The notes beneath the pieces were generated by a model. That model ran no database searches, was not told the origin of the DNA, and worked only from the letters and a program-made list of their open reading frames with translations. 64,000 bases of DNA from an uncultured Candidatus Saccharibacteria bacterium (GTDB lineage: Bacteria > Patescibacteriota > Minisyncoccia > Phycocordibacterales > SBAW01), in NCBI GenBank assembly GCA_964459335.1, contig CAYWJX010000001.1, positions 33,642 to 97,641 of the forward strand. The letters are read 5' to 3'. A program made the translations under genes and the position numbers. Positions 19,118-28,313 of the stretch are shown here, piece after piece. Position 1 is the first letter of the stretch. Every line of letters begins with the position of its first letter.

Positions 19118-19188
19118 TCGGGGCGCCGAGAATCGAACTCGGGTTTCACCCACCCGAAGGGTGTATAATGCCACTATAAGACGCCCCG
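19118..19188 (-). tRNA. tRNA-Pro (anticodon CGG), no encoded CCA, atypical D-arm
   Basis: The reverse complement CGGGGCGTCTTATAGTGGCATTATACACCCTTCGGGTGGGTGAAACCCGAGTTCGATTCTCGGCGCCCCGA has the anticodon loop TTCGGGT (G37), a normal T-arm TTCGATT, and flanks that extend the acceptor stem. Confidence 0.7.
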
Positions 19189-19206
19189 ACTTAGATTTCG
19201 ACCGGC

Positions 19207-19235
19207 TGTATAACTCCACTATAAGACGCCCCGAC
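19207..19235. repeat. 29-nt direct repeat (2 mismatches) of 19162-19190, the 5' acceptor and D-arm portion of the tRNA-Pro gene
   Basis: tgtataatgccactataagacgccccgac is matched by tgtataactccactataagacgccccgac, 44 nt further right. Confidence 0.55.
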
Positions 19236-19329: not shown

Positions 19330-19698
19330 CTAATGGGGCGCCAAGCCATTGATCATATTACCAAGACAAGTGGCTGCGATTCCTAAATGTTTAGCGAAGG
19401 GCAGAAATTCCTTAATACGCCGCAGATGTTCTACTTCTGCAACGCGCCGCGGTTTGTTCTCTTCCATGATAAGTATGCTGCGGATCTCCCAATGATGTTC
19501 TTTGCGTCCGCCGTCGACAGCGCAAACGACCACCCTAACGTTGAGATGCTTGTCCGCCTTGCGATAAAAATCGAGTTCAACGCGGTCAACGTCGTCAGAA
19601 AAGCTTCCGAAAACGGTAGCCGATCTTACGATTTTGAATTCATTTCCTCCCACCACAACAGGGACGCGACTTTCTGTCTCTCGAAGCCGGAAGTCCAT
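19330..19698 (-). CDS. Hypothetical protein (122 aa), low confidence
   Basis: An ORF only. The surrounding region is rich in hairpins and tRNAs, and the overlapping plus-strand ORF 19387..20010 runs through tRNA-Val and is rejected. Confidence 0.3.
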   Translation of the reverse strand: MDFRLRETESRVPVVVGGNEFKIVRSATVFGSFSDDVDRVELDFYRKADKHLNVRVVVCAVDGGRKEHHWEIRSILIMEENKPRRVAEVEHLRRIKEFLPFAKHLGIAATCLGNMINGLAPH

Positions 19699-19901: not shown

Positions 19902-19949
19902 CACCAAGACAAAAGAATCTGCCGCAGGGCAGATTCTTTTGTCTTGGTG
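19902..19949 (-). terminator. Long perfect hairpin at the 3' end of tRNA-Val (22-bp stem) whose right arm includes the encoded CCA end
   Basis: caccaagacaaaagaatctgcc-gcag-ggcagattcttttgtcttggtg. It lies immediately downstream of tRNA-Val on the minus strand. Confidence 0.45.
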
Positions 19950-20019
19950 CACCCTTCAGGATTCGAACCTGAGGCCTCACCCGTGTGAAGGGTGCGCTCT
20001 AACCAACTGAGCTAAGGGT
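19944..20019 (-). tRNA. tRNA-Val (anticodon CAC), CCA encoded
   Basis: The reverse complement GCACCCTTAGCTCAGTTGGTTAGAGCGCACCCTTCACACGGGTGAGGCCTCAGGTTCGAATCCTGAAGGGTGCACCA is a canonical cloverleaf. Confidence 0.85.
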
Positions 20020-20071
20020 GCAAACATATACAGATTGCAATATATAGAGATTTTAGTAAAGTAATGAAGCA

Positions 20072-20144
20072 AGGGCCCTTAGCTCATTTGGTAGAGCGCC
20101 TCATTTGCAATGAGGAGGTGACCGGTTCGATCCCGGTAGGGTCC
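20072..20144 (+). tRNA. tRNA-Ala (anticodon TGC), no encoded CCA
   Basis: GGGCCCTTAGCTCATTTGGTAGAGCGCCTCATTTGCAATGAGGAGGTGACCGGTTCGATCCCGGTAGGGTCCA has G3:U70 and the anticodon loop TTTGCAA. Confidence 0.85.
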
Positions 20145-21637
20145 ACAGAAGCAGACATCGGAGACAAAACTAGGTCTTTCGCCTTGAAAACAGAGGATAT
20201 TTTGTTGGTTCCAAAAACTTTGCCATCAAACGTCATACCTAAGGGGAATTGGAACCATTGCAGCTTGGTTTGTGTTGCAATACTAGCTTTTTTCCATATT
20301 TTGCTTGGCGCTTGCAGATACTCTGACGTGAAGTCGATTGCCTCCTCCGGCGATATATCGATATTGTTCAAGAGTGCAAGGCTCGCGTGTGCGTCGGTAG
20401 TTTCTTTTTCTACAAGCGCGAGCTGTTGCTTTAGTACAGCATCGCTTAACACGCCCTGTATATTTTTCTTAACAAGAGCTGTTTGTTGCTCGGCGAGTTG
20501 CTCTATATGTTTCTGTAATCTCTCAGCTTCCTTTCGTGCATCCGCCGTAGCCTCATAAAACTCTTTCTTAACCAAACGCTTAAGCTTGGCAATATGTTCG
20601 TTCTCAAATGCGTAAGAGTCCATCTTAAAGGCAAACTGCCGCTCGAACTCATCCCGCTGGTAGTTGCTACCTTTGCCTCCAAAGCGATAGAAAGCATATT
20701 TGGTGCCGGAGCGCCCGCTCGACCAGCTCCCCGTCAATTTCAAGCCCTCAGGATTGAATATAAAACGGCGGAGGGGAAAGTCGGCATTATCCTTTTTGTA
20801 CTCGTTTACCTTGTATCCTTTGTTTTTGAGTACGCGCTGCACTTGTTCAAATAAAGTATCGGTTACTATCGCTTCAAACAATCCTCGATGACTCTCTCCA
20901 AACTTCTCTATAACACGCGTATAGAGCCTATTACGCAGCATCTCGCGGAAGTATTGGCTAGAGACAGGCCTGCCACCTTTTACTTTCAAACCATCTTTTA
21001 CCATCCTGCGCCAAACGTCCTCTGTGGTGTACAAGCCTGTGGCGATAAGCTGAAAACTCCTTAACACGAGCGGAGCCATTTCGTTAGGAGCGATAGTGGG
21101 CTTGCCGTTGAGTTGTGCTCCATTTGAGTAACCGACTGGGGCACCCCATACATAGCGTCCATCGCGTACCGCATCGCGCATACCGTTGGAGCAACGCTCG
21201 GCACGTACCTCGTTATCAAACTGCGCGATGCTTGCCATCGTATTTTCCATGAAGCGTCCTGCGGGATTGTTCTCAAAAAGCTCAGTGGTGGATTTAATTT
21301 CCACTCCGTAACGCTTTAACAAGATGCGGAGCTGGCTGTAGTCATCGGTGTTGCGGGAGAGACGGTCAATTTTGTATACGATAACTGCGGATATTTGATT
21401 TTTCTTTTGAGTACAATAACCGAGCATCTTTTGGAGCTGTGTACGGTCTGCGGTCTTAGCACTCTCGCCACGCTCGATGAATACCTCCACAACGTCAAAA
21501 CCATTTTTACTCGCATACTCGCGGCAAATCTTTTCCTGCGTGGCAAGAGAGTTACCCTCCTCGGCCTGCTCCATAGTGGAGACACGGACATAGACAACGG
21601 CTCGCTTATTATTTGGTTGGCTGTTTGATTGGTACAT
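20084..21637 (-). CDS. Large serine recombinase (resolvase/invertase N-terminal domain plus recombinase and zinc-ribbon domains)
   Basis: The N-terminus AVVYVRVSTMEQAEEGNSLATQ carries the catalytic Ser, and VIVYKIDRLSRN is the resolvase motif. Total length is 517 aa. The last 19 codons (DPTGIEPVTSSLQMRRSTK) are the reverse reading of the tRNA-Ala(TGC) 3' half. Confidence 0.85.
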   Translation of the reverse strand: MYQSNSQPNNKRAVVYVRVSTMEQAEEGNSLATQEKICREYASKNGFDVVEVFIERGESAKTADRTQLQKMLGYCTQKKNQISAVIVYKIDRLSRNTDDYSQLRILLKRYGVEIKSTTELFENNPAGRFMENTMASIAQFDNEVRAERCSNGMRDAVRDGRYVWGAPVGYSNGAQLNGKPTIAPNEMAPLVLRSFQLIATGLYTTEDVWRRMVKDGLKVKGGRPVSSQYFREMLRNRLYTRVIEKFGESHRGLFEAIVTDTLFEQVQRVLKNKGYKVNEYKKDNADFPLRRFIFNPEGLKLTGSWSSGRSGTKYAFYRFGGKGSNYQRDEFERQFAFKMDSYAFENEHIAKLKRLVKKEFYEATADARKEAERLQKHIEQLAEQQTALVKKNIQGVLSDAVLKQQLALVEKETTDAHASLALLNNIDISPEEAIDFTSEYLQAPSKIWKKASIATQTKLQWFQFPLGMTFDGKVFGTNKISSVFKAKDLVLSPMSASVDPTGIEPVTSSLQMRRSTK

Positions 21638-22295
21638 AATTTTTTTGTTCCAAATATGCCTCTACAATAATTTTTGCAAGATACGCCAAGGCATCATCCT
21701 CATTAGTAATTATACCCTCGGCCATAGATGTTGGAGGGTCATGTTTATTGTCTGGTTTATAAGGCTTGTCGGGTAACATAAAGATAAAAAATTATGTACA
21801 CCCAAAGGAGTAGCTCCAATGGTCGACTCTCCAAAACATTTGAAGAGCCGACTTCTAGTGCCCTCGCAGTCAGGGCAGAAGAAATAAAAAAGCCCGACTG
21901 AATATCAGCTAGGTTTTTTGGTAAGCGCACAAAGTGTGCTCAAGCAAAATACCTAAGTTAATCTGAATCCAGCCGGGGGGACATCACATGCAAACTTCTT
22001 ACGTTGCTTTATAGTTCCAGGCTATAGCCCTTACCGCTTCAACACACCCTAAGGCCACAGACATATCCATGACGTTGTGACTTCCATGCACTAGGGTGGC
22101 TCCATCACGCTAAAGACCCGTTTATGTTTAACATCTAACTGCCATCAGTGTATTCCTACCAGACAGAGGGGTAAACTTTACACGGCAGCTCTAACCGTGT
22201 CGTGGTATCAACCCCTTTGCCGATGTCATGTAAATAGAATGAGGAGACATGGAAGCAGCTGGACAGCGCAGCGGCGGCGCAGTAGGATTTCCCCG

Positions 22296-22631
22296 ATGTC
22301 CGTAGATACCTATTCCTACTTCCTCATCATCCTGTCCGGCTTTTTTACCGTATGGGGGTACCGCAAAGCGAGCCAATGGATGCTCGTCTCAAACAAAAAG
22401 CCAAGCGACTTTGAATACCTCGCCTACAGCGCTTTCTGGGGCATCATACTTCTCGCGTTGTACGAGGAAATTGAGCGCCATCATCCCGACCAAATATCTA
22501 AGCTCCTTACCAACCCATATTCTGCAGGCGTGTTACTTTCCGTATTGGGCATGGTCGTGGGAATCTGCACATTCTTTACCCTCGTCATGCTAAAAACTTT
22601 CTTCAATAACTTTAGAGGCTCACGTTTTTAA
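22296..22631 (+). CDS. Small hypothetical membrane protein (111 aa from the internal Met)
   Basis: Three predicted TM helices. It is convergent with, and overlaps, the 3' end of the tyrosine recombinase gene. Low confidence. Confidence 0.3.
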   Translation: MSVDTYSYFLIILSGFFTVWGYRKASQWMLVSNKKPSDFEYLAYSAFWGIILLALYEEIERHHPDQISKLLTNPYSAGVLLSVLGMVVGICTFFTLVMLKTFFNNFRGSRF

Positions 22632-23517
22632 AGCACCGAAATACCTCTCTCGACTGTAACTTGGCATCCAGCTCGTCGTTATACACCAGTAACATGTCGA
22701 GCGAGTGATGGCGTGTAAACTTTCGCGCATCCATCGGGTTAAGCCTCCGCAGTATAGTGGTCGCATAATAGTGTCTGCACCCGTGCACCACTTTTTTAAT
22801 GCCGAGCGGCTTCATAAGCCGGTGCATGTCTCTCTTTATAGTCATGGTGCTTAGCCGCGCCGCTTTGCGGTTGCTAAAGCTTCTGAACAGCACCCCCGAA
22901 GATATCCCCGCAGCTCGTAGATATTGTCGCAATGCTGTTACTGTCTGTGGTGCGAGGTATATAGGTTCTTTATCATCGCGGCCTTTGCCTTGTATGTATG
23001 CGATGCCAGTTGGCAGGCGCAAGTCTTCCACATCGAGCCTTGTAACTTCTATTTGCCGCAAGCCCTGCACGATTAGCAGAGCAAAAACGGCTCGAAGTCG
23101 GGCATTGTATGGTGTTGGCGGCAACTTCCGCATCATGCGTGCCATTGCCTGCACCTCCTCCTCGGTGAGCCCCTCCCTGCGGTGCAGTTTACTTTGTCGA
23201 AAGCCTTTGATGCCTGCGGATATGTCGGCGGGTATTGCTCCTATGCGGTATAGCTCGCGCACAAACACCTTCGCCACGGTAAAGTATTTATTTTTACTCG
23301 CGATAGATAGCCGTTCATCCCGCGCTAGCATCCGCTTGTACTCAACAACTGAGTTTCGATTAAAGCCGATCCGGCCGACAAAAGACACAAACAGCTCCAC
23401 CCGTTGCCGGTACTCTTTGCGCGTTCCCTCGCATACATCGAGCCCGTCAAATACCTCGGTAAGTTTGTCCGCAGCGTTTGGTTTTAAAAGTATCGCCAAC
23501 TGCGGAGTAGTGGTCAT
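22612..23517 (-). CDS. Tyrosine-type site-specific recombinase / integrase (XerC/D-like)
   Basis: The C-terminal catalytic region is HGCRHYYATTILRR (HxxR) ... LLVY (Tyr nucleophile), with an N-terminal SAM-like domain. 301 aa. Confidence 0.85.
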   Translation of the reverse strand: MTTTPQLAILLKPNAADKLTEVFDGLDVCEGTRKEYRQRVELFVSFVGRIGFNRNSVVEYKRMLARDERLSIASKNKYFTVAKVFVRELYRIGAIPADISAGIKGFRQSKLHRREGLTEEEVQAMARMMRKLPPTPYNARLRAVFALLIVQGLRQIEVTRLDVEDLRLPTGIAYIQGKGRDDKEPIYLAPQTVTALRQYLRAAGISSGVLFRSFSNRKAARLSTMTIKRDMHRLMKPLGIKKVVHGCRHYYATTILRRLNPMDARKFTRHHSLDMLLVYNDELDAKLQSREVFRCFKNVSL

Positions 23518-23519
23518 GG

Positions 23520-23933
23520 CTAGTGTTCACCCTCTTCGTAAAGGATATGCCGCATCTCAACGCCATGCTGTGCAAAAGGCGGTTCCAACATTTTGCTTCG
23601 GTGGCATTTTGTCGGGTCGCTCTCACTGCATAGCACGCACATTTGCTCCCCGCGCTGTACCATGCGCACCAATTCTTTTATAGCCCCCTCGTAATCACGG
23701 TTAGCGCCTCGTCCACCGAGTCTGTCGCCATAGAAGGTGTATTGGATATGTGCCAGTGTAAGCGCCTCTTGTAAGGGCTTCTGAGAAAAATGCGGGTGTC
23801 TGTGACTGAAGGGATAGGAACGTACGTCTATAACATGCTCGACGCCGTTGTCGCGGAGCTTGTCTAAAAAAGTGGAGAGAGAATGATTACCGTGCCCAAG
23901 AGATTTAAGAAATAACTGACGTTGTTTTTGCAT
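23520..23933 (-). CDS. DUF488 family protein
   Basis: LKSLGHGNHSLSTFLDKLRDNGVEHVIDVRSYPFSHRHPHF...YTFYGDRLGGRG matches the DUF488 (YeaO-like) pattern. It lies directly upstream of the integrase with a 2-nt gap. Confidence 0.6.
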   Translation of the reverse strand: MQKQRQLFLKSLGHGNHSLSTFLDKLRDNGVEHVIDVRSYPFSHRHPHFSQKPLQEALTLAHIQYTFYGDRLGGRGANRDYEGAIKELVRMVQRGEQMCVLCSESDPTKCHRSKMLEPPFAQHGVEMRHILYEEGEH

Positions 23934-24041
23934 ACTTTAATCCTAAGAGACACCAGACCAAATGCAATCAAGCGACTAAGTTTAGCCACTTTTAAAGCGT
24001 AAAGGTTTTCCAGTCTCTGTGGACAACTTTTCCCCATTAGG

Positions 24042-24215
24042 TTACTCGGACTTTGTTTCCCAACACGTGATTGCGATAAGCATGGCACTGAGGAGCCAAA
24101 ACACAGTTGCGGATACGTTCCCAAATATCGCCGTTATGGCACCTATAACCCAAAAAATACCAATGATGTTGCCCTGTGCGGTTGTGTAATGGTTTTTTAA
24201 CTTATTTTTCCCCAT
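24042..24215 (-). CDS. Small membrane protein (57 aa)
   Basis: MGKNKLKNHYTTAQGNIIGIFWVIGAITAIFGNVSATVFWLLSAMLIAITCW has two TM helices. It is in tandem with the frameshifted gene below. Confidence 0.4.
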   Translation of the reverse strand: MGKNKLKNHYTTAQGNIIGIFWVIGAITAIFGNVSATVFWLLSAMLIAITCWETKSE

Positions 24216-24217
24216 AA

Positions 24218-24396
24218 CTATTTTTTTACCGCCCACACTAAGGCAACTACCCACCCTATAAGGGTCCAACCCAAAAAGAAGTTCAACACAGCTATTGCAA
24301 CCCTATTCTCTTTTTCGTAAGTAAAAGCAATAATACTCGGAAGCCAATACACACCTCCTACTACTAGTACAAGAAGCGCTACCAATATTCCAGCCA
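24218..24396 (-). pseudogene. Superinfection-immunity-like (Imm_superinfect family) small membrane protein gene, disrupted by an apparent 1-nt frameshift
   Basis: One frame gives MAGILVALLVLV then a stop. The other frame gives ...GGVYWLPSIIAFTYEKENRVAIAVLNFFLGWTLIGWVVALVWAVKK, which matches the family signature (LPSIIA...LGWTxIGWxxALxWA). The 179-nt span is not a multiple of 3. Confidence 0.45.
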
Positions 24397-24800
24397 TAGA
24401 TTAATACATTTAGCTATTAATCCTAGTGATGAACACAAAGCCCGCCACCAGGAGGCCTTGCGGCCCTATACAAGTTTCCCTGTATAACGTAAGTCACGCC
24501 CTGATAACGGGTTTTCTGTGACTTACGATTTTCGCCCTTACCCTAGCACTGCTAGGGGTTAGGACCTTACTCCTATTAAGTTTTTACATCTGTAATCATA
24601 CCAAACCAACCGCAAGCGTCTATAGGCATTGTTAGAAAGGCTCTATCCCGCGCTAGCTCCCTCTAAGCCTACACAGCTGTTGCTGTGTGGAGTAAGTATA
24701 CTTTTTATAGAATACACTTCTAAATGCTTAAAATGGGAGGCAATACGGTCAAACCTCTTCCGATGGATAAAAATTTCGAACGAGCGTATCATTCTTGCTA

Positions 24801-27416
24801 ATGGATGACATCTATCAGCAAATAGTCAAATGGTCATCTGATAGACCCCTTTGGCTGCGTGATGCTCTGCGTCGCCTTGTTCTCAATGGTTCTTTGGAAC
24901 AAAGGGACTATAACGAACTGGCGGATATCTGCAAAACACAGCGTGGAATTGATGTTGGTCATCCTGTTCCCAAACCACTACCTTTGACCGCCGAACATGT
25001 TCCAAACGCTACAAGCTTGGGTGGCTCTATTGCACTCACGGAGTTGCATAATTTTCGAGGTATAAACCGTATCTCACAAGAAGCTAAACTTAGCCTTGAA
25101 CCTGTTGGACTCAATGTCGTATATGGCGAGAATGGAGCTGGCAAGTCGGGATATACTCGTGTGCTTAAAAAAATCTGTCGTGCACGTGGTAACAACGATG
25201 AAGAAATATACCAAGATATATTTTCCGAGGATGAGGAAGAGCAAGGTGCAGAGGTCAATTTTACTGAAGGCGGTCAAGTAAGAACATTTAAATGGGAGCC
25301 TGATGCGCTAGTTCCTCAAGAGCTCTCAGCTATAAGTGTTTTCGACAGCGAGTGCGCACTTGTGCATGTAGATGGAAGCAACGAACTTGCATACCAACCA
25401 TTTGGTTTGGACTTGATGACACGAGTAGCAGAAGTTGCCACTACACTCAGCGCCCGCTTTAGAGCCGACTATGCAGTCTCTAAAAAAGCCGCGGACAATT
25501 TTAGTGACTTTCTGGCAGGCACTCAAACCTACGGCAAATTGAATAATCTACACGCAGGCTTGAGCGAAACCACTCTTAAAGAGCTGTTTGAGTTTACCGG
25601 TGCAGAAAAAAAGGAGTTAACAGCTGTAGCCAAGCAATTATCTGACTTTAAAACAAACGACCCTGGTAAAAAAATCCTTGAACTGAGTGGCCAAATAAGG
25701 CGGCTAGAAGAGCTCAACACTCATCTCGACACTTTGGTTCGTACTTATTCAAAACCAGCACTAGACCGAATCGTAGTGCTCAGAGAAAAGCTTTTCGCCG
25801 CAAAAGAAACCGTAGCCCTAAGCAGAAAGAGCTTCGAGGACGCTTCAGTACAAGGTGTCGGAGGAGACGCCTGGATGCAGTTATGGGAATCAGCTCGTCG
25901 CTACTTTGAGCATGAAGCGTACCCAACTAAAACTTTTCCTGTAGACCGAGGTGTTCGGTGTGTTCTCTGCCAACAGGAACTTTCCACCGAGGCTAAAGAC
26001 AGGCTTCGTCACTTCGAGGGGTTTGTACAGGCGGAAGCCCAGCAAGCGTATGATGTAGCTCAAGAAGCGCTTGTAGAAGCGCAGGAAGCGTTGGAAGGGA
26101 TAGAAATGCTGCCCGCGCACATAAAACCTACACTTCAAGAAGATATCCCTGCTCTGCATAAACAACTTAGTGGCGAGATAACAGAGATTCTAAAAGGCAT
26201 AAAAATACTTCAAACATCGGTACCGTATCTTGCGGCAGAAAGGTGCAGTGCTTTGGAACTTAAGGTAACAAACACGGTTACGCTCACTATAAAGAAGTTG
26301 GTGACCGCGCTGGAGAAGGAGCGTAATACTTATATAAAATTGCAAAATGACAGTACTGCTGTAATACGGCCATTAGAACACCAAGCGAATGAGCTACAAG
26401 CAGCCCAACAAGCCGCTCGCTCCTTTGAACGTATAAGGAAGGAAATATCTCGCCAAAAGCTTGAGAACAAACTTGAGTCTTGCATTGCCGACACTGATAC
26501 TACAGGTATAACACGCAAAGCAGATGCTTTGAGCAAAGTAATAACCAAAGACTTATGCCAACGGTTTTCTGCAGAGGCAAAAGGGCTGGATGTTGGAAAT
26601 AAGATAGACATTAGTCTTGAAGTGTCAGAGGCGAAGAAGGGAGCCTCATACCACCAGATTGTCCTTTCCTCCTCCACCCAAGATGTTCCCGTGAGCAAGA
26701 TATTAAGCGAGGGAGAGAATCGTGCAATAGCGCTTGCATCTTTTTTAACAGAGGTAGCGCTGGCTCCTTTTCCATCAGCCATTGTGTTGGATGACCCAGT
26801 TTCTTCTCTTGACCACAAGCGGCGAGAAAGAATTGCTCGCCGACTAGTTGAGGAGGCAACCAAACGCCAAGTTATTGTTTTCACGCACGACTTGCGCTTT
26901 GTGTTTGACCTCCAAAACGCTACTGATACAGTTGGAGGTTCAGTAAACTTTCAGACTGCTTATGCCACCAACAGCGATACTGGTCGTATTGATGAGGGAT
27001 TGCCTTGGGAAGGTATGACTGCAGAAGCTCGCTTGAAGACGTTGCGGGGTCATTTACAACGAGCTGGAGCCTTGTATAAAGCTGACGAGATTAGAGAGTA
27101 TAAACGAGATGTAAAGCAAATATATCGCGACCTGAGGGAAACATGGGAACGAGCTGTCGAGCTTAATCTTCTAGGAGGCGTAGTAACTCGCTTTAATGCT
27201 GATATTCGTACGAAAAAGAAAGGACTTATGCCGTTAGTAGATATATCAGCAGAAGATTGTGAGATAGTTGATGCAGCGGTAACTCGTTGCAGCAACTTTG
27301 CACACGATGCAGCCTTTGAAGGTGTTCCATCTATACCACCGCCCGATGAGGTTAGCCAAGACATAGAGCAACTTTGGTCGTGGATTTCTGAAATTAAGAC
27401 TCGGCGTGCGCATTAA
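24801..27416 (+). CDS. Rad50/SMC-like AAA ATPase of the AAA_13 (RloC/PrrC-like) type, with a coiled-coil insert, a CxxC zinc hook and an uncharacterised C-terminal domain of about 170 aa
   Basis: Motifs: Walker A GENGAGKSG; a long coiled-coil insert between the ATPase lobes; CVLC (DRGVRCVLCQQEL) in mid-coil; the ABC signature LSEGENRAIALASFL; Walker B IVLDDPVSSLD; and the H-loop VIVFTHD. The ATG at 24801 is used rather than the TTG at 24795. Confidence 0.8.
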   Translation: MDDIYQQIVKWSSDRPLWLRDALRRLVLNGSLEQRDYNELADICKTQRGIDVGHPVPKPLPLTAEHVPNATSLGGSIALTELHNFRGINRISQEAKLSLEPVGLNVVYGENGAGKSGYTRVLKKICRARGNNDEEIYQDIFSEDEEEQGAEVNFTEGGQVRTFKWEPDALVPQELSAISVFDSECALVHVDGSNELAYQPFGLDLMTRVAEVATTLSARFRADYAVSKKAADNFSDFLAGTQTYGKLNNLHAGLSETTLKELFEFTGAEKKELTAVAKQLSDFKTNDPGKKILELSGQIRRLEELNTHLDTLVRTYSKPALDRIVVLREKLFAAKETVALSRKSFEDASVQGVGGDAWMQLWESARRYFEHEAYPTKTFPVDRGVRCVLCQQELSTEAKDRLRHFEGFVQAEAQQAYDVAQEALVEAQEALEGIEMLPAHIKPTLQEDIPALHKQLSGEITEILKGIKILQTSVPYLAAERCSALELKVTNTVTLTIKKLVTALEKERNTYIKLQNDSTAVIRPLEHQANELQAAQQAARSFERIRKEISRQKLENKLESCIADTDTTGITRKADALSKVITKDLCQRFSAEAKGLDVGNKIDISLEVSEAKKGASYHQIVLSSSTQDVPVSKILSEGENRAIALASFLTEVALAPFPSAIVLDDPVSSLDHKRRERIARRLVEEATKRQVIVFTHDLRFVFDLQNATDTVGGSVNFQTAYATNSDTGRIDEGLPWEGMTAEARLKTLRGHLQRAGALYKADEIREYKRDVKQIYRDLRETWERAVELNLLGGVVTRFNADIRTKKKGLMPLVDISAEDCEIVDAAVTRCSNFAHDAAFEGVPSIPPPDEVSQDIEQLWSWISEIKTRRAH

Positions 27417-27450
27417 TTAATGGAAATGATTGAGGTTAAAATATAAATCT

Positions 27451-27855
27451 ATGCACCGATACCTTGCCTATGGCTCAAATATGAGCGCAGAACAAATGGC
27501 TAAAATAGACCGCGCACCCGATTCGCACAAGTTAGGTGTGGCGGAACTCCCAAACTATGAGTTTTTTATAAACGCCCGGGGCGTCGCTTCCATCCGAGAA
27601 AAACAAGGCAAAATAGTATGGGGAATACTGTATGAGCTTTCGGAAATGGACGAAGCAAGGTTGGATAAAAAAGAGGGTATCCCTAGATTTTATGTAAAGA
27701 AAAACCTACCAACTCTCAACGCTTTTTCTTATATTGCCCAACCAGCCGACGACGGCAGGCCGCGAGAGGGATATTTGGAGAGAATAATAAAAGCTGCACA
27801 GGACAATGCATTTCCGGTTGAGTACGTTGAGGAGTTAAAGGAATGGAGTGATTAA
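27451..27855 (+). CDS. Gamma-glutamyl cyclotransferase-like (GGCT/AIG2 family) protein
   Basis: The N-terminus MHRYLAYGSNMSAEQM has the YxAYGSNM motif of the GGCT fold. It starts 35 nt after the ATPase stop on the same strand. Confidence 0.7.
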   Translation: MHRYLAYGSNMSAEQMAKIDRAPDSHKLGVAELPNYEFFINARGVASIREKQGKIVWGILYELSEMDEARLDKKEGIPRFYVKKNLPTLNAFSYIAQPADDGRPREGYLERIIKAAQDNAFPVEYVEELKEWSD

Positions 27856-28313
27856 TGCCTTGTAATGGGAATGAGGTAACATGGAACCTATGGCCGACCA
27901 TCCCGAGGACACTCCACTTGATGAGGAGGATATAGCCCAACTTGCCCAAATCTTTGACCTACTAGCGCAATGGGACTGGGAGCAAAAAGAGCGCGAAAGA
28001 GGGCCCCATTGACCTACGGTTGCATTATATGTTTTTAGCCACATTTTGGTTGCGGTGTCCTGTTTTATTTTTTGACGCCCTTATCAATACCTTCGACCAA
28101 CTTTTCTGCGGCGTGCTCAATGTAACCTCCTACACTTAGACCCATCTTTTCTCCTTTCTTAAGACTGTTGTTCTAACTCTCTACTGTAGTTACCCTCCGC
28201 CGATAAAACTGGGCTCTATAAGACCACCATGTTCACTCTTAAGTATGTCTGCTAGTTGATTGCACTCTAGCGCAAAGTGGTTCCAAAATGCTACGCTGGA
28301 GTCCACCATAGTT

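Follow-up and report, generated by a model that had tools for sequence, protein, structure and literature searches.

RloC, known for example from Geobacillus kaustophilus, is an anticodon nuclease (ACNase) that excises the wobble nucleotide. Its nuclease is switched internally by a DNA-dependent ATPase and a zinc hook (PMC3458546), and catalytic triads have been defined by mutation both in RloC (R692/E696/H737) and in PrrC (R320/E324/H356) (PMC2610378). The placing of active-site residues in HEPN RNases has been described (PMC3710099), and PADLOC includes phage defence candidates (PDCs), of one or several genes, which were drawn from genes lying within BREX, DISARM or type I restriction-modification (R-M) loci (bioRxiv 10.1101/2024.01.29.577857). 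Here, a 64,000-nt stretch of DNA from an uncultured Candidatus Saccharibacteria bacterium (contig CAYWJX010000001.1, positions 33,642 to 97,641; the window) was analysed, with emphasis on a gene for an ATP-binding cassette (ABC) ATPase and a gamma-glutamyl cyclotransferase (GGCT)-like gene directly downstream of it. A sequence-only reading of the window had proposed that the two genes form a defence or abortive-infection module. We favour, with moderate confidence, a different account, in which the 871-aa ATPase is a self-contained, RloC-like ABC–zinc-hook–HEPN candidate for defence or abortive infection and the GGCT-like gene is separate cargo of the same genomic island. The architecture, conservation and genomic behaviour of the ATPase carry this account, which by analogy would extend to its activity, its trigger and an RNA target.

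Predicted architecture of the ATPase

The open reading frame (ORF) of the ATPase was found at the expected coordinates (Table 1), and its product was corrected from 872 to 871 aa, the larger figure having counted the stop codon. An in-frame TTG at 24795 provides an alternative start, and homologues start at the ATG. Since one search returned more than 1,599 full-length homologues of ~865 aa each, and since homologues of the GGCT-like protein reach 68% identity, neither ORF is a chance ORF, judged by homology. Against PADLOC, the ATPase matched PDLC04891 (E 7.8e-201, aa 4–869 against model positions 3–857 of 858) and, over its whole length, PDLC04893 (E 3.3e-180); this end-to-end match to PDC-S06 bears out the earlier proposal that the ATPase is a defence candidate.

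A model of the full-length ATPase was built with AlphaFold2 on an alignment of 119 sequences, giving a mean predicted local distance difference test (pLDDT) score of 87.2, and divides into five parts: an N-terminal three-helix domain (aa 4–47), an ABC N-lobe, a helical insert, an ABC C-lobe and an all-helical C-terminal domain. In the N-terminal domain, W11, S12 and W18 are invariant in the homologue alignment. In PADLOC, this domain matched only PDLC04891 and PDLC04893, and comparison with Pfam gave no convincing match, with one match at chance level (E 0.25); by these searches, the domain appears to be specific to the family of the ATPase.

The Rad50/SMC-type ABC motifs listed in the sequence-only reading were all recovered in the translation and are invariant in the family. 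G109 and K115 of Walker A are the same in 119/119 sequences, as are S636, G638, E639, D664, D665 and H696 across the C-lobe, and an invariant D-loop (SLD) follows Walker B (AIVLDDP..SLD). The N-lobe matches the N-lobes of GajA, PtuA, LmuB and AriA. When the full-length model was compared with the PDB using Foldseek, the best solved-structure matches were Rad50, SMC, cohesin and condensin heads with coiled coil, Lamassu LmuB and Wadjet JetC; sequence matches to the PDB (AriA, Rad50) were confined to the signature/Walker B stretch.

The insert is modelled as an antiparallel coiled coil with a CxxC motif at its midpoint. The placing of CVLC at the middle of a coiled coil therefore agrees with the earlier description, and the length does not, being ~390 aa in the model and not ~450 aa. 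C387 and C390 of the putative hook are invariant in 119/119 sequences, as are F379-P380 upstream. Because each chain contains only two cysteines, an intermolecular zinc hook of the Rad50 type is the natural reading of CVLC, with zinc binding and dimerisation expected by analogy with Rad50 and RloC (PMC2610378). The RloC-type architecture that had been suggested, namely an ABC ATPase with a CxxC coiled coil and a C-terminal effector-like domain, was recovered.

Public labels for the ATPase are 'energy-coupling factor transporter ATP-binding protein EcfA2' (JGI) and, on RefSeq plasmids, 'AAA family ATPase' or 'hemin importer ATP-binding subunit'. Where these labels denote a transporter they are wrong, the protein being an ABC protein with a coiled coil.

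The C-terminal domain and its candidate active site

In the predicted models, the C-terminal domain is formed by helices 741–760, 764–790, 817–834 and 848–870, with an insert (791–816) that holds a short helix (806–814), and this layout fits the HEPN description in PMC3710099. Across the 119 sequences, conservation centres on polar residues: E783, E787, R797, H835 and P846 are invariant, and R779, Y767, W782, D819 and D836 are kept in 118. The second long helix holds R779, E783 and E787 as well as E780-x3-R784, and the insert comes after it. Translation gives RETWE for the first motif (R779-E-T-W-E783) and RCSNFAHD for the second (R829-CSNFA-H835-D, 829–836); the latter falls where the third helix ends and the loop to the last helix begins, and R829-x5-H835 of the window protein stands at the HEPN motif position (PMC3710099). 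The R-x3-E pattern with a distant histidine, which had been picked out in the window protein, proved to be invariant or nearly so across the family and to occupy HEPN/PrrC/RloC-type positions.

Comparison of the C-terminal domain model (pLDDT 79.6) with the PDB using Foldseek, a check that the sequence-only reading had proposed, placed HEPN structures in all of the first six places (AF_0298, HepT, ST0689, SO_3166). On the strength of these models, an HEPN/ACNase-like fold is the best-supported reading of the C-terminal domain, and RNase activity is probable by analogy.

Several results weigh against this reading. The best HEPN match in the Foldseek comparison had an E-value of 0.012, and none was significant. 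There was no HEPN, RloC or PrrC profile match to the domain in Pfam, the PDB or PADLOC: searches against Pfam (E ≤ 10; with one sequence and with 25 sequences), NCBIfam and the PDB (hmmsearch) returned no match, and in PADLOC the domain matched PDC-S06 only (its two closest models). The basic residue before the histidine is lysine in 114/119 sequences, which departs from the canonical Rx4-6H; 102/119 sequences show K-x7-H, and 14/119 show K/R-x5-H. Glu and His are 51 residues apart, versus 31 in PrrC and 40 in RloC, in line with the mismatch with PrrC/RloC spacing noted in the sequence-only reading. In addition, PDC-S06 is itself a bioinformatic candidate only, for which no effector or mechanism was given (bioRxiv 10.1101/2024.01.29.577857).

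The lack of a significant structural match, the lack of a profile match and the predominance of K-x7-H over Rx4-6H would suit a domain that is a regulatory, dimerisation or partner-binding bundle and not a nuclease. The ATPase would then be a Rad50/SMC-like DNA tether or sensor with its effector in trans or with none, acting, for example, in maintenance of plasmids or other mobile genetic elements or in repair. We consider this unlikely, although not negligible. The invariant E783, E787, R797 and H835 and the near-invariant R779 and D836 are typical of a catalytic site and not of a packing bundle, and in the model the conserved residues stand at HEPN active-site positions. Furthermore, the sister PDC-S06 models PDLC04888 and PDLC04892 match the head and hook (window aa 59–804) and not the N- and C-terminal domains, and the PDC-S06 label spans 11 further hidden Markov models (HMMs) with different C-termini; since head and hook are shared without the C-terminal domain, this domain may be a swappable effector module, and the profiles suggest effector-domain swapping within the PDC-S06 group, which again speaks against a structural bundle.

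If the domain is an HEPN-like nuclease, a mechanism may be proposed by analogy with RloC. The ATPase, coiled coil and hook would serve as a sensor or switch for DNA ends, DNA damage or foreign DNA; ATP-driven engagement of the heads or rearrangement of the hook would release the HEPN-like domains, or assemble and pair them; the domains would cut RNA, most likely tRNA, in a metal-free reaction through H835 with R779, E783 and R797; and the resulting halt of translation would abort the infection. A probable HEPN site (R779, E783, H835) combined with an RloC-like switch provides a direct hypothesis for the PDC-S06 candidate, and the family, if the hypothesis is correct, would be the first zinc-hook ABC-HEPN outside RloC proper with an assigned active site.

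Spread and neighbours of the two genes

A profile search with the C-terminal domain returned 2,636 clusters at 50% identity from many phyla. Among the matches listed, the domain is always at the protein C-terminus, mostly in proteins of ~860 aa, and the shorter matches look like fragments. The ATPase family is present in 289 plasmid records, 159 of them full-length entries that carry no label beyond 'AAA family ATPase', and many copies are on conjugative plasmids; ~21 full-length copies (≥90% of the query) were found on viral or prophage contigs in IMG/VR, and none was found in the GenBank phage collection. PDC-S06-type proteins are thus a very large cross-phylum family hidden behind generic or wrong transporter labels.

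All flanking ORFs of 84 ATPase-homologue loci were clustered, and no conserved neighbour emerged. The commonest neighbours were a large serine recombinase of the same family as that of the window island (10 loci), SbcD-like genes (9) and a P4-type integrase (6), followed by HsdM, type III Mod, Res and an SF1 helicase-nuclease of ~1,980 aa (5 each); RadC was seen too. The family usually lies beside integrases, R-M, BREX or toxin-antitoxin genes. In one annotated plasmid locus, BrxL and a YhaO/YhaN pair precede the ATPase and a PIN/AbrB toxin-antitoxin module follows it, and in a second a DNA methyltransferase precedes it. Given the absence of a conserved neighbour together with these mobile and defence settings, the ATPase gene is taken to be self-sufficient and to travel within mobile and defence regions.

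SbcD-like or 'DNA repair exonuclease' neighbours were observed at nine loci (L061, L074, L076, L080, L081, L018, L037, L078, L082), in several of them within ~100 nt of the ATPase homologue and elsewhere kilobases away or on the opposite strand. In one annotated plasmid locus (L253, 1220–5937), the exonuclease gene has a distinct YhaN-type ATPase as its partner. The pattern looks like recurrent, non-obligatory co-location of two ABC-type systems.

These neighbours, and the many copies on conjugative plasmids, are what a tether or sensor without nuclease activity might be expected to have around it. Where they are annotated, the SbcD-like neighbours bring their own YhaN/SbcC-type ATPase, however, and they are absent from most loci, the ATPase family as a whole being without a conserved partner. 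The possibility that the ATPase is a housekeeping SbcC, which the sequence-only reading had itself raised, is not borne out by the genomic setting: the gene belongs to an island that a related genome lacks (see below), no more than 9/84 loci have SbcD-like neighbours, and among the ORFs of the window island Pfam identified no SbcD-type phosphoesterase gene. A housekeeping Rad50/SbcC–Mre11/SbcD identity is accordingly not what is observed.

To survey the pairing of ATPase and GGCT-like gene, 83 ATPase neighbourhoods were assembled from 80 species-representative genomes of many phyla and the closest metagenomic relatives, with at least 1 kb of downstream sequence in 73 and at least 3 kb in 65. 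GGCT-like ORFs were sought by phmmer with the window protein and with an HMM of 27 GGCT homologues at E ≤ 1. None was found by either method in the 83 neighbourhoods, and none in 31 further plasmid or viral ATPase neighbourhoods (0/114 in total). Conversely, an HMM of the ATPase family found no member in 166 GGCT-homologue neighbourhoods. The two closest relatives of the ATPase (36–37% identity), which lie in comparable serine-recombinase islands, are both without a GGCT gene. A 114-aa ORF after the closest homologue (P0002) was considered as a diverged GGCT and rejected, as it had no HMM match and no Pfam match.

The arrangement put forward before was a dedicated two-gene module for defence; in such a module, the ATPase would be the sensor and the cyclotransferase the effector or a co-factor. 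The genes are on the same strand, the GGCT-like ORF starting 34 nt past the ATPase stop (not 35, as first counted); no terminator is predicted in this gap, where a promoter and terminator scan stayed at background level; both genes are cargo of one island; and relatives of the window GGCT clade often adjoin defence genes (R-M, a TIR protein, an HEPN-like ORF). The pair may therefore be co-transcribed and may have a local functional link, which speaks against treating the GGCT-like gene as wholly separate. Set against this, the GGCT gene is missing from all 83 and 31 ATPase loci, including the closest relatives in similar serine-recombinase islands, the ATPase is missing from all 166 GGCT loci, and the ATPase has a conserved effector-like domain of its own. 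We regard the dedicated module as extremely improbable. With no GGCT gene in 114 ATPase loci and no ATPase in 166 GGCT loci, the two-gene system is not real: among the neighbourhoods surveyed, the pairing is unique to the window locus, and the genes are chance neighbours. The neighbourhood search that had been suggested as a check thus showed no co-inheritance, and it did place the ATPase near R-M, BREX and toxin-antitoxin genes. Recognising the cyclotransferase pairing as chance avoids reporting a spurious 'new two-gene system'.

The GGCT-like protein itself belongs to the fold named in the sequence-only reading on the strength of YLAYGSNM, with Pfam matches above the gathering thresholds to AIG2_2 (1.3e-11, 45.2 bits, gathering 27) and GGACT (4.1e-9, 37.5 bits, gathering 22.8). 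The motif Y(F/L)AYGSN(M/L) (Y4, A6, Y7, G8, S9, N10) is kept in at least 90% of GGCT homologues, and E75-G76 is invariant; we take E75 to be the glutamate at the catalytic position, as in GGCT and GGACT structures. Because of the near-invariant YGSN-type motif and the invariant Glu75-Gly76, the protein is probably an active enzyme. One public gene call begins the ORF at Met18 and loses the YGSN motif; the homologous start is the ATG at 27451. Contigs with identical GGCT proteins were considered as separate loci and discarded, being the same locus with different start-codon calls. PADLOC has no model for the GGCT-like protein.

In its wider family, at least 538 confirmed IMG/VR matches are on viral contigs, often after Amidoligase_2 and before a second GGACT gene; these Amidoligase_2-adjacent phage relatives are 37–40% identical. 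More distant members are found in metabolic settings, beside biotin carboxylase or Nramp. The closest clade is found in operons in the order N6_N4 methyltransferase (~600 aa), GGCT (133–134 aa) and ResIII helicase-nuclease (847–848 aa), with gaps or overlaps of 4–13 nt, at four loci on Patescibacteria-type contigs (L087, 3062–7905; L176, 346–5079; L175, 1–2392, partial; L085, 3–4525, with an extra T5orf172 gene inserted). Across these mod-GGCT-res loci, Mod proteins are 64–75% and Res proteins 65–69% identical to each other, and the GGCT proteins are 52–68% identical to the window copy. We came across no account of a cyclotransferase-fold gene lying inside a Type III-like R-M system. Another GGCT relative lies 2.5 kb from a methyltransferase and ResIII/SNF2 pair.

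At two further loci (L177, 536–1060; L178, 4281–4805), a GGCT of ~43% identity overlaps by 18 nt with a downstream ORF of 175 aa, which carries KIRNNVFHG (RNNVFH, Rx4H, HEPN-like) and has no Pfam match. At another (L179, 3861–7054), a GGCT homologue lies between RmuC and a TIR-domain protein.

The clade could be a mobile accessory of defence or counter-defence, cooperating with whatever system surrounds it, embedded in Type III-like R-M (Mod/Res) and sometimes moved beside an ABC-HEPN gene, as in the window, a TIR gene or a small HEPN-like ORF. The four diverged mod-GGCT-res loci, the relatives near a methyltransferase with ResIII/SNF2, near the Rx4H ORF and near RmuC and TIR, and the lack of a PADLOC model would agree with such a role, and guilt-by-embedding has served well in uncovering defence genes. 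The wider family is nevertheless metabolic or, very commonly, phage-borne with Amidoligase_2; there are four R-M-embedded instances only and one instance beside the ATPase family; and tblastn found no Mod/Res remnant in the window. We hold this role to be quite improbable; if it were real, gamma-glutamyl-cyclotransferase chemistry would enter phage defence. That the clade removes a gamma-glutamyl-type modification made by phage amidoligase modules is speculative. The mod-GGCT-res operons are, although still thin, a better lead for new biology than the pair, in which the GGCT gene is best seen as an independent, mobile and possibly defence-associated gene that landed after the ATPase by chance.

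The island and comparison with known systems

The best UvrB matches place the host of the window in Patescibacteria (Minisyncoccia, Paceibacterota, Adlerbacteria). The limits of the island were set by comparison with a relative (L255, UvrB 84% identical) that shares the UvrB-UvrA-UvrC-Ddl-Pterin_4a block. In L255, tRNA-Ala(tgc), tRNA-Pro(cgg), tRNA-Ala(cgc) and the gene for the ATP synthase a-subunit come straight after this block, and the island is absent. Since the segment that L255 lacks contains the ATPase gene as well as the GGCT-like gene, the two are cargo of a single small integrative island. GC content is 0.435–0.46 over 24–28 kb and ~0.53 in the flanks. A repeat search found no tRNA-derived attachment (att) direct repeat flanking the island, as expected with a serine recombinase. 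On the favoured reading of the ATPase, small islands with a serine recombinase move RloC-like systems among the reduced genomes of Patescibacteria.

The earlier description of an island with two recombinases and a superinfection-immunity-like gene was upheld by Pfam, which identified a serine recombinase, a tyrosine integrase and Imm_superinfect (Table 1). The DUF488 protein matched PADLOC PDC-M45B (E 1.7e-29) and PDC-M19A, and by these matches its gene is a second defence-candidate cargo of the island. The LOOT RNA lies directly 5' of the Imm_superinfect gene, inside the 400-nt gap ahead of the ATPase start, and may be a cis-regulatory leader of this membrane protein gene.

Table 1. Coordinates of features in the window
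Feature	Position	Strand	Details
ATPase ORF	24801..27416	+	871 aa plus stop; PADLOC PDC-S06 family; Pfam AAA_13, AAA_21 and SMC_N matches
N-terminal three-helix domain (aa 1-50)	24801..24950	+	Helices 4-12, 17-29, 34-47; pLDDT 82-97
ABC head N-lobe	25026..25400	+	By translation; contains Walker A
Walker A GENGAGKS (aa 109-116)	25125-25148	+	By translation
Helical coiled-coil insert (aa 204-595)	25410..26585	+	~390 aa; DSSP of AlphaFold model
CVLC, putative zinc hook (aa 387-390)	25959..25970	+	Loop between helices 356-373 and 396-409
ABC head C-lobe	26586..27005	+	LSEGE, AIVLDDP and FTHD by translation
Signature LSEGE (aa 635-639)	26703-26717	+	
Walker B AIVLDDP (aa 660-666)	26778-26798	+	
H-loop FTHD (aa 694-697)	26880-26891	+	
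C-terminal four-helix HEPN-like domain (aa 741-870)	27021..27410	+	Candidate site R779, E783, E787, R797, R829, H835
GGCT/AIG2-like ORF	27451..27855	+	134 aa, starts MHRYLAYGSNM; adjacent cargo
Integrative island	20073..28300	.	~8.2 kb; tRNA-Ala(tgc) to gap before Pterin_4a; right edge approximate
tRNA-Ala(tgc)	20073-20146	+	98.7% identical to L255 20301-20376
Large serine recombinase	20084..21637	-	Pfam Resolvase 7e-35 and Recombinase; 3' end runs into tRNA-Ala(tgc)
Tyrosine integrase	22612-23517	-	Pfam; other island cargo
DUF488 gene	23520-23933	-	Pfam; 3 nt upstream of tyrosine integrase gene
Imm_superinfect gene	24218-24397	-	Pfam 8.6e-18; divergent from ATPase
LOOT RNA (Rfam RF03000)	24453-24565	-	Full-length; 71.9 bits, gathering 46.4

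The tRNA-Ala(tgc) of the window is inverted with respect to the flanking synteny and stands at the island end far from Pterin_4a, and 63 nt of it are covered, in antisense, by the serine recombinase ORF. This arrangement suggests either an inversion of the tRNA together with the island or a tRNA copy borne by the island. Outside the island, a 32-nt direct repeat (91% identical; 19159–19190 and 19204–19235) copies the 5' part of the adjoining tRNA-Pro(cgg), and a tRNA-Val(cac) (19945–20021) and a 122-aa ORF (19330–19698) are absent at the L255 site. The repeat, the extra tRNA and the ORF may be traces of another insertion.

GGCT-fold enzymes (GGCT, GGACT, AIG2, ChaC, BtrG) share with the GGCT-like protein its AIG2_2/GGACT match, the YGSN-type loop and the conserved glutamate, and phage modules of Amidoligase_2 and GGCT differ from it in setting, in that the closest clade of the window gene sits in Type III-like R-M operons.

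For the ATPase, Rad50/SbcC, SMC, LmuB and JetC have the same ABC head with an antiparallel coiled coil, and Rad50 also has a CxxC hook. These proteins act together with nucleases or kleisins that are proteins of their own (Mre11/SbcD, LmuA, JetABD), in contrast to the window ATPase, which has no conserved partner and carries a fused effector-like domain, and likeness to Rad50 and SMC in sequence is limited to the signature/Walker B region. PrrC is a counterpart in its ABC ATPase and, if the predictions for the window protein hold, in its C-terminal HEPN ACNase with an R-x3-E ... H triad and its defence role, but it has no coiled-coil or zinc-hook insert and sits in a type I R-M system, which keeps it silent. 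The match of the PADLOC PrrC model to the window ATPase is confined to the Walker B/H-loop stretch (E 1.9e-4).

RloC resembles the window ATPase in build, being a single polypeptide whose ABC head is split by a long coiled coil that has CxxC at its centre, followed by an all-helical C-terminal effector domain with an R-x3-E ... H pattern, and is likewise spread by lateral transfer, with no obligatory partner and only occasional R-M linkage (PMC2610378, PMC3458546). It differs in that homology to its C-terminal domain was not detected (the AAA_13 match of the window protein covers aa 386–710, model positions 257–583 of 713), in its shorter Glu-to-His distance, with K-x7-H prevailing in the window family, and in lacking the extra conserved N-terminal three-helix domain. 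Because of the undetected C-terminal homology and the extra N-terminal domain, the ATPase, as far as its sequence allows, is RloC-like in build and in proposed mode but is not demonstrably a member of the RloC family. With PDC-S06 there is no structural difference, the window ATPase being a full-length member that includes the N- and C-terminal domains. What is new is a probable variant of ABC–zinc-hook–HEPN single-protein defence, and what was known is that it is already catalogued as the candidate PDC-S06.

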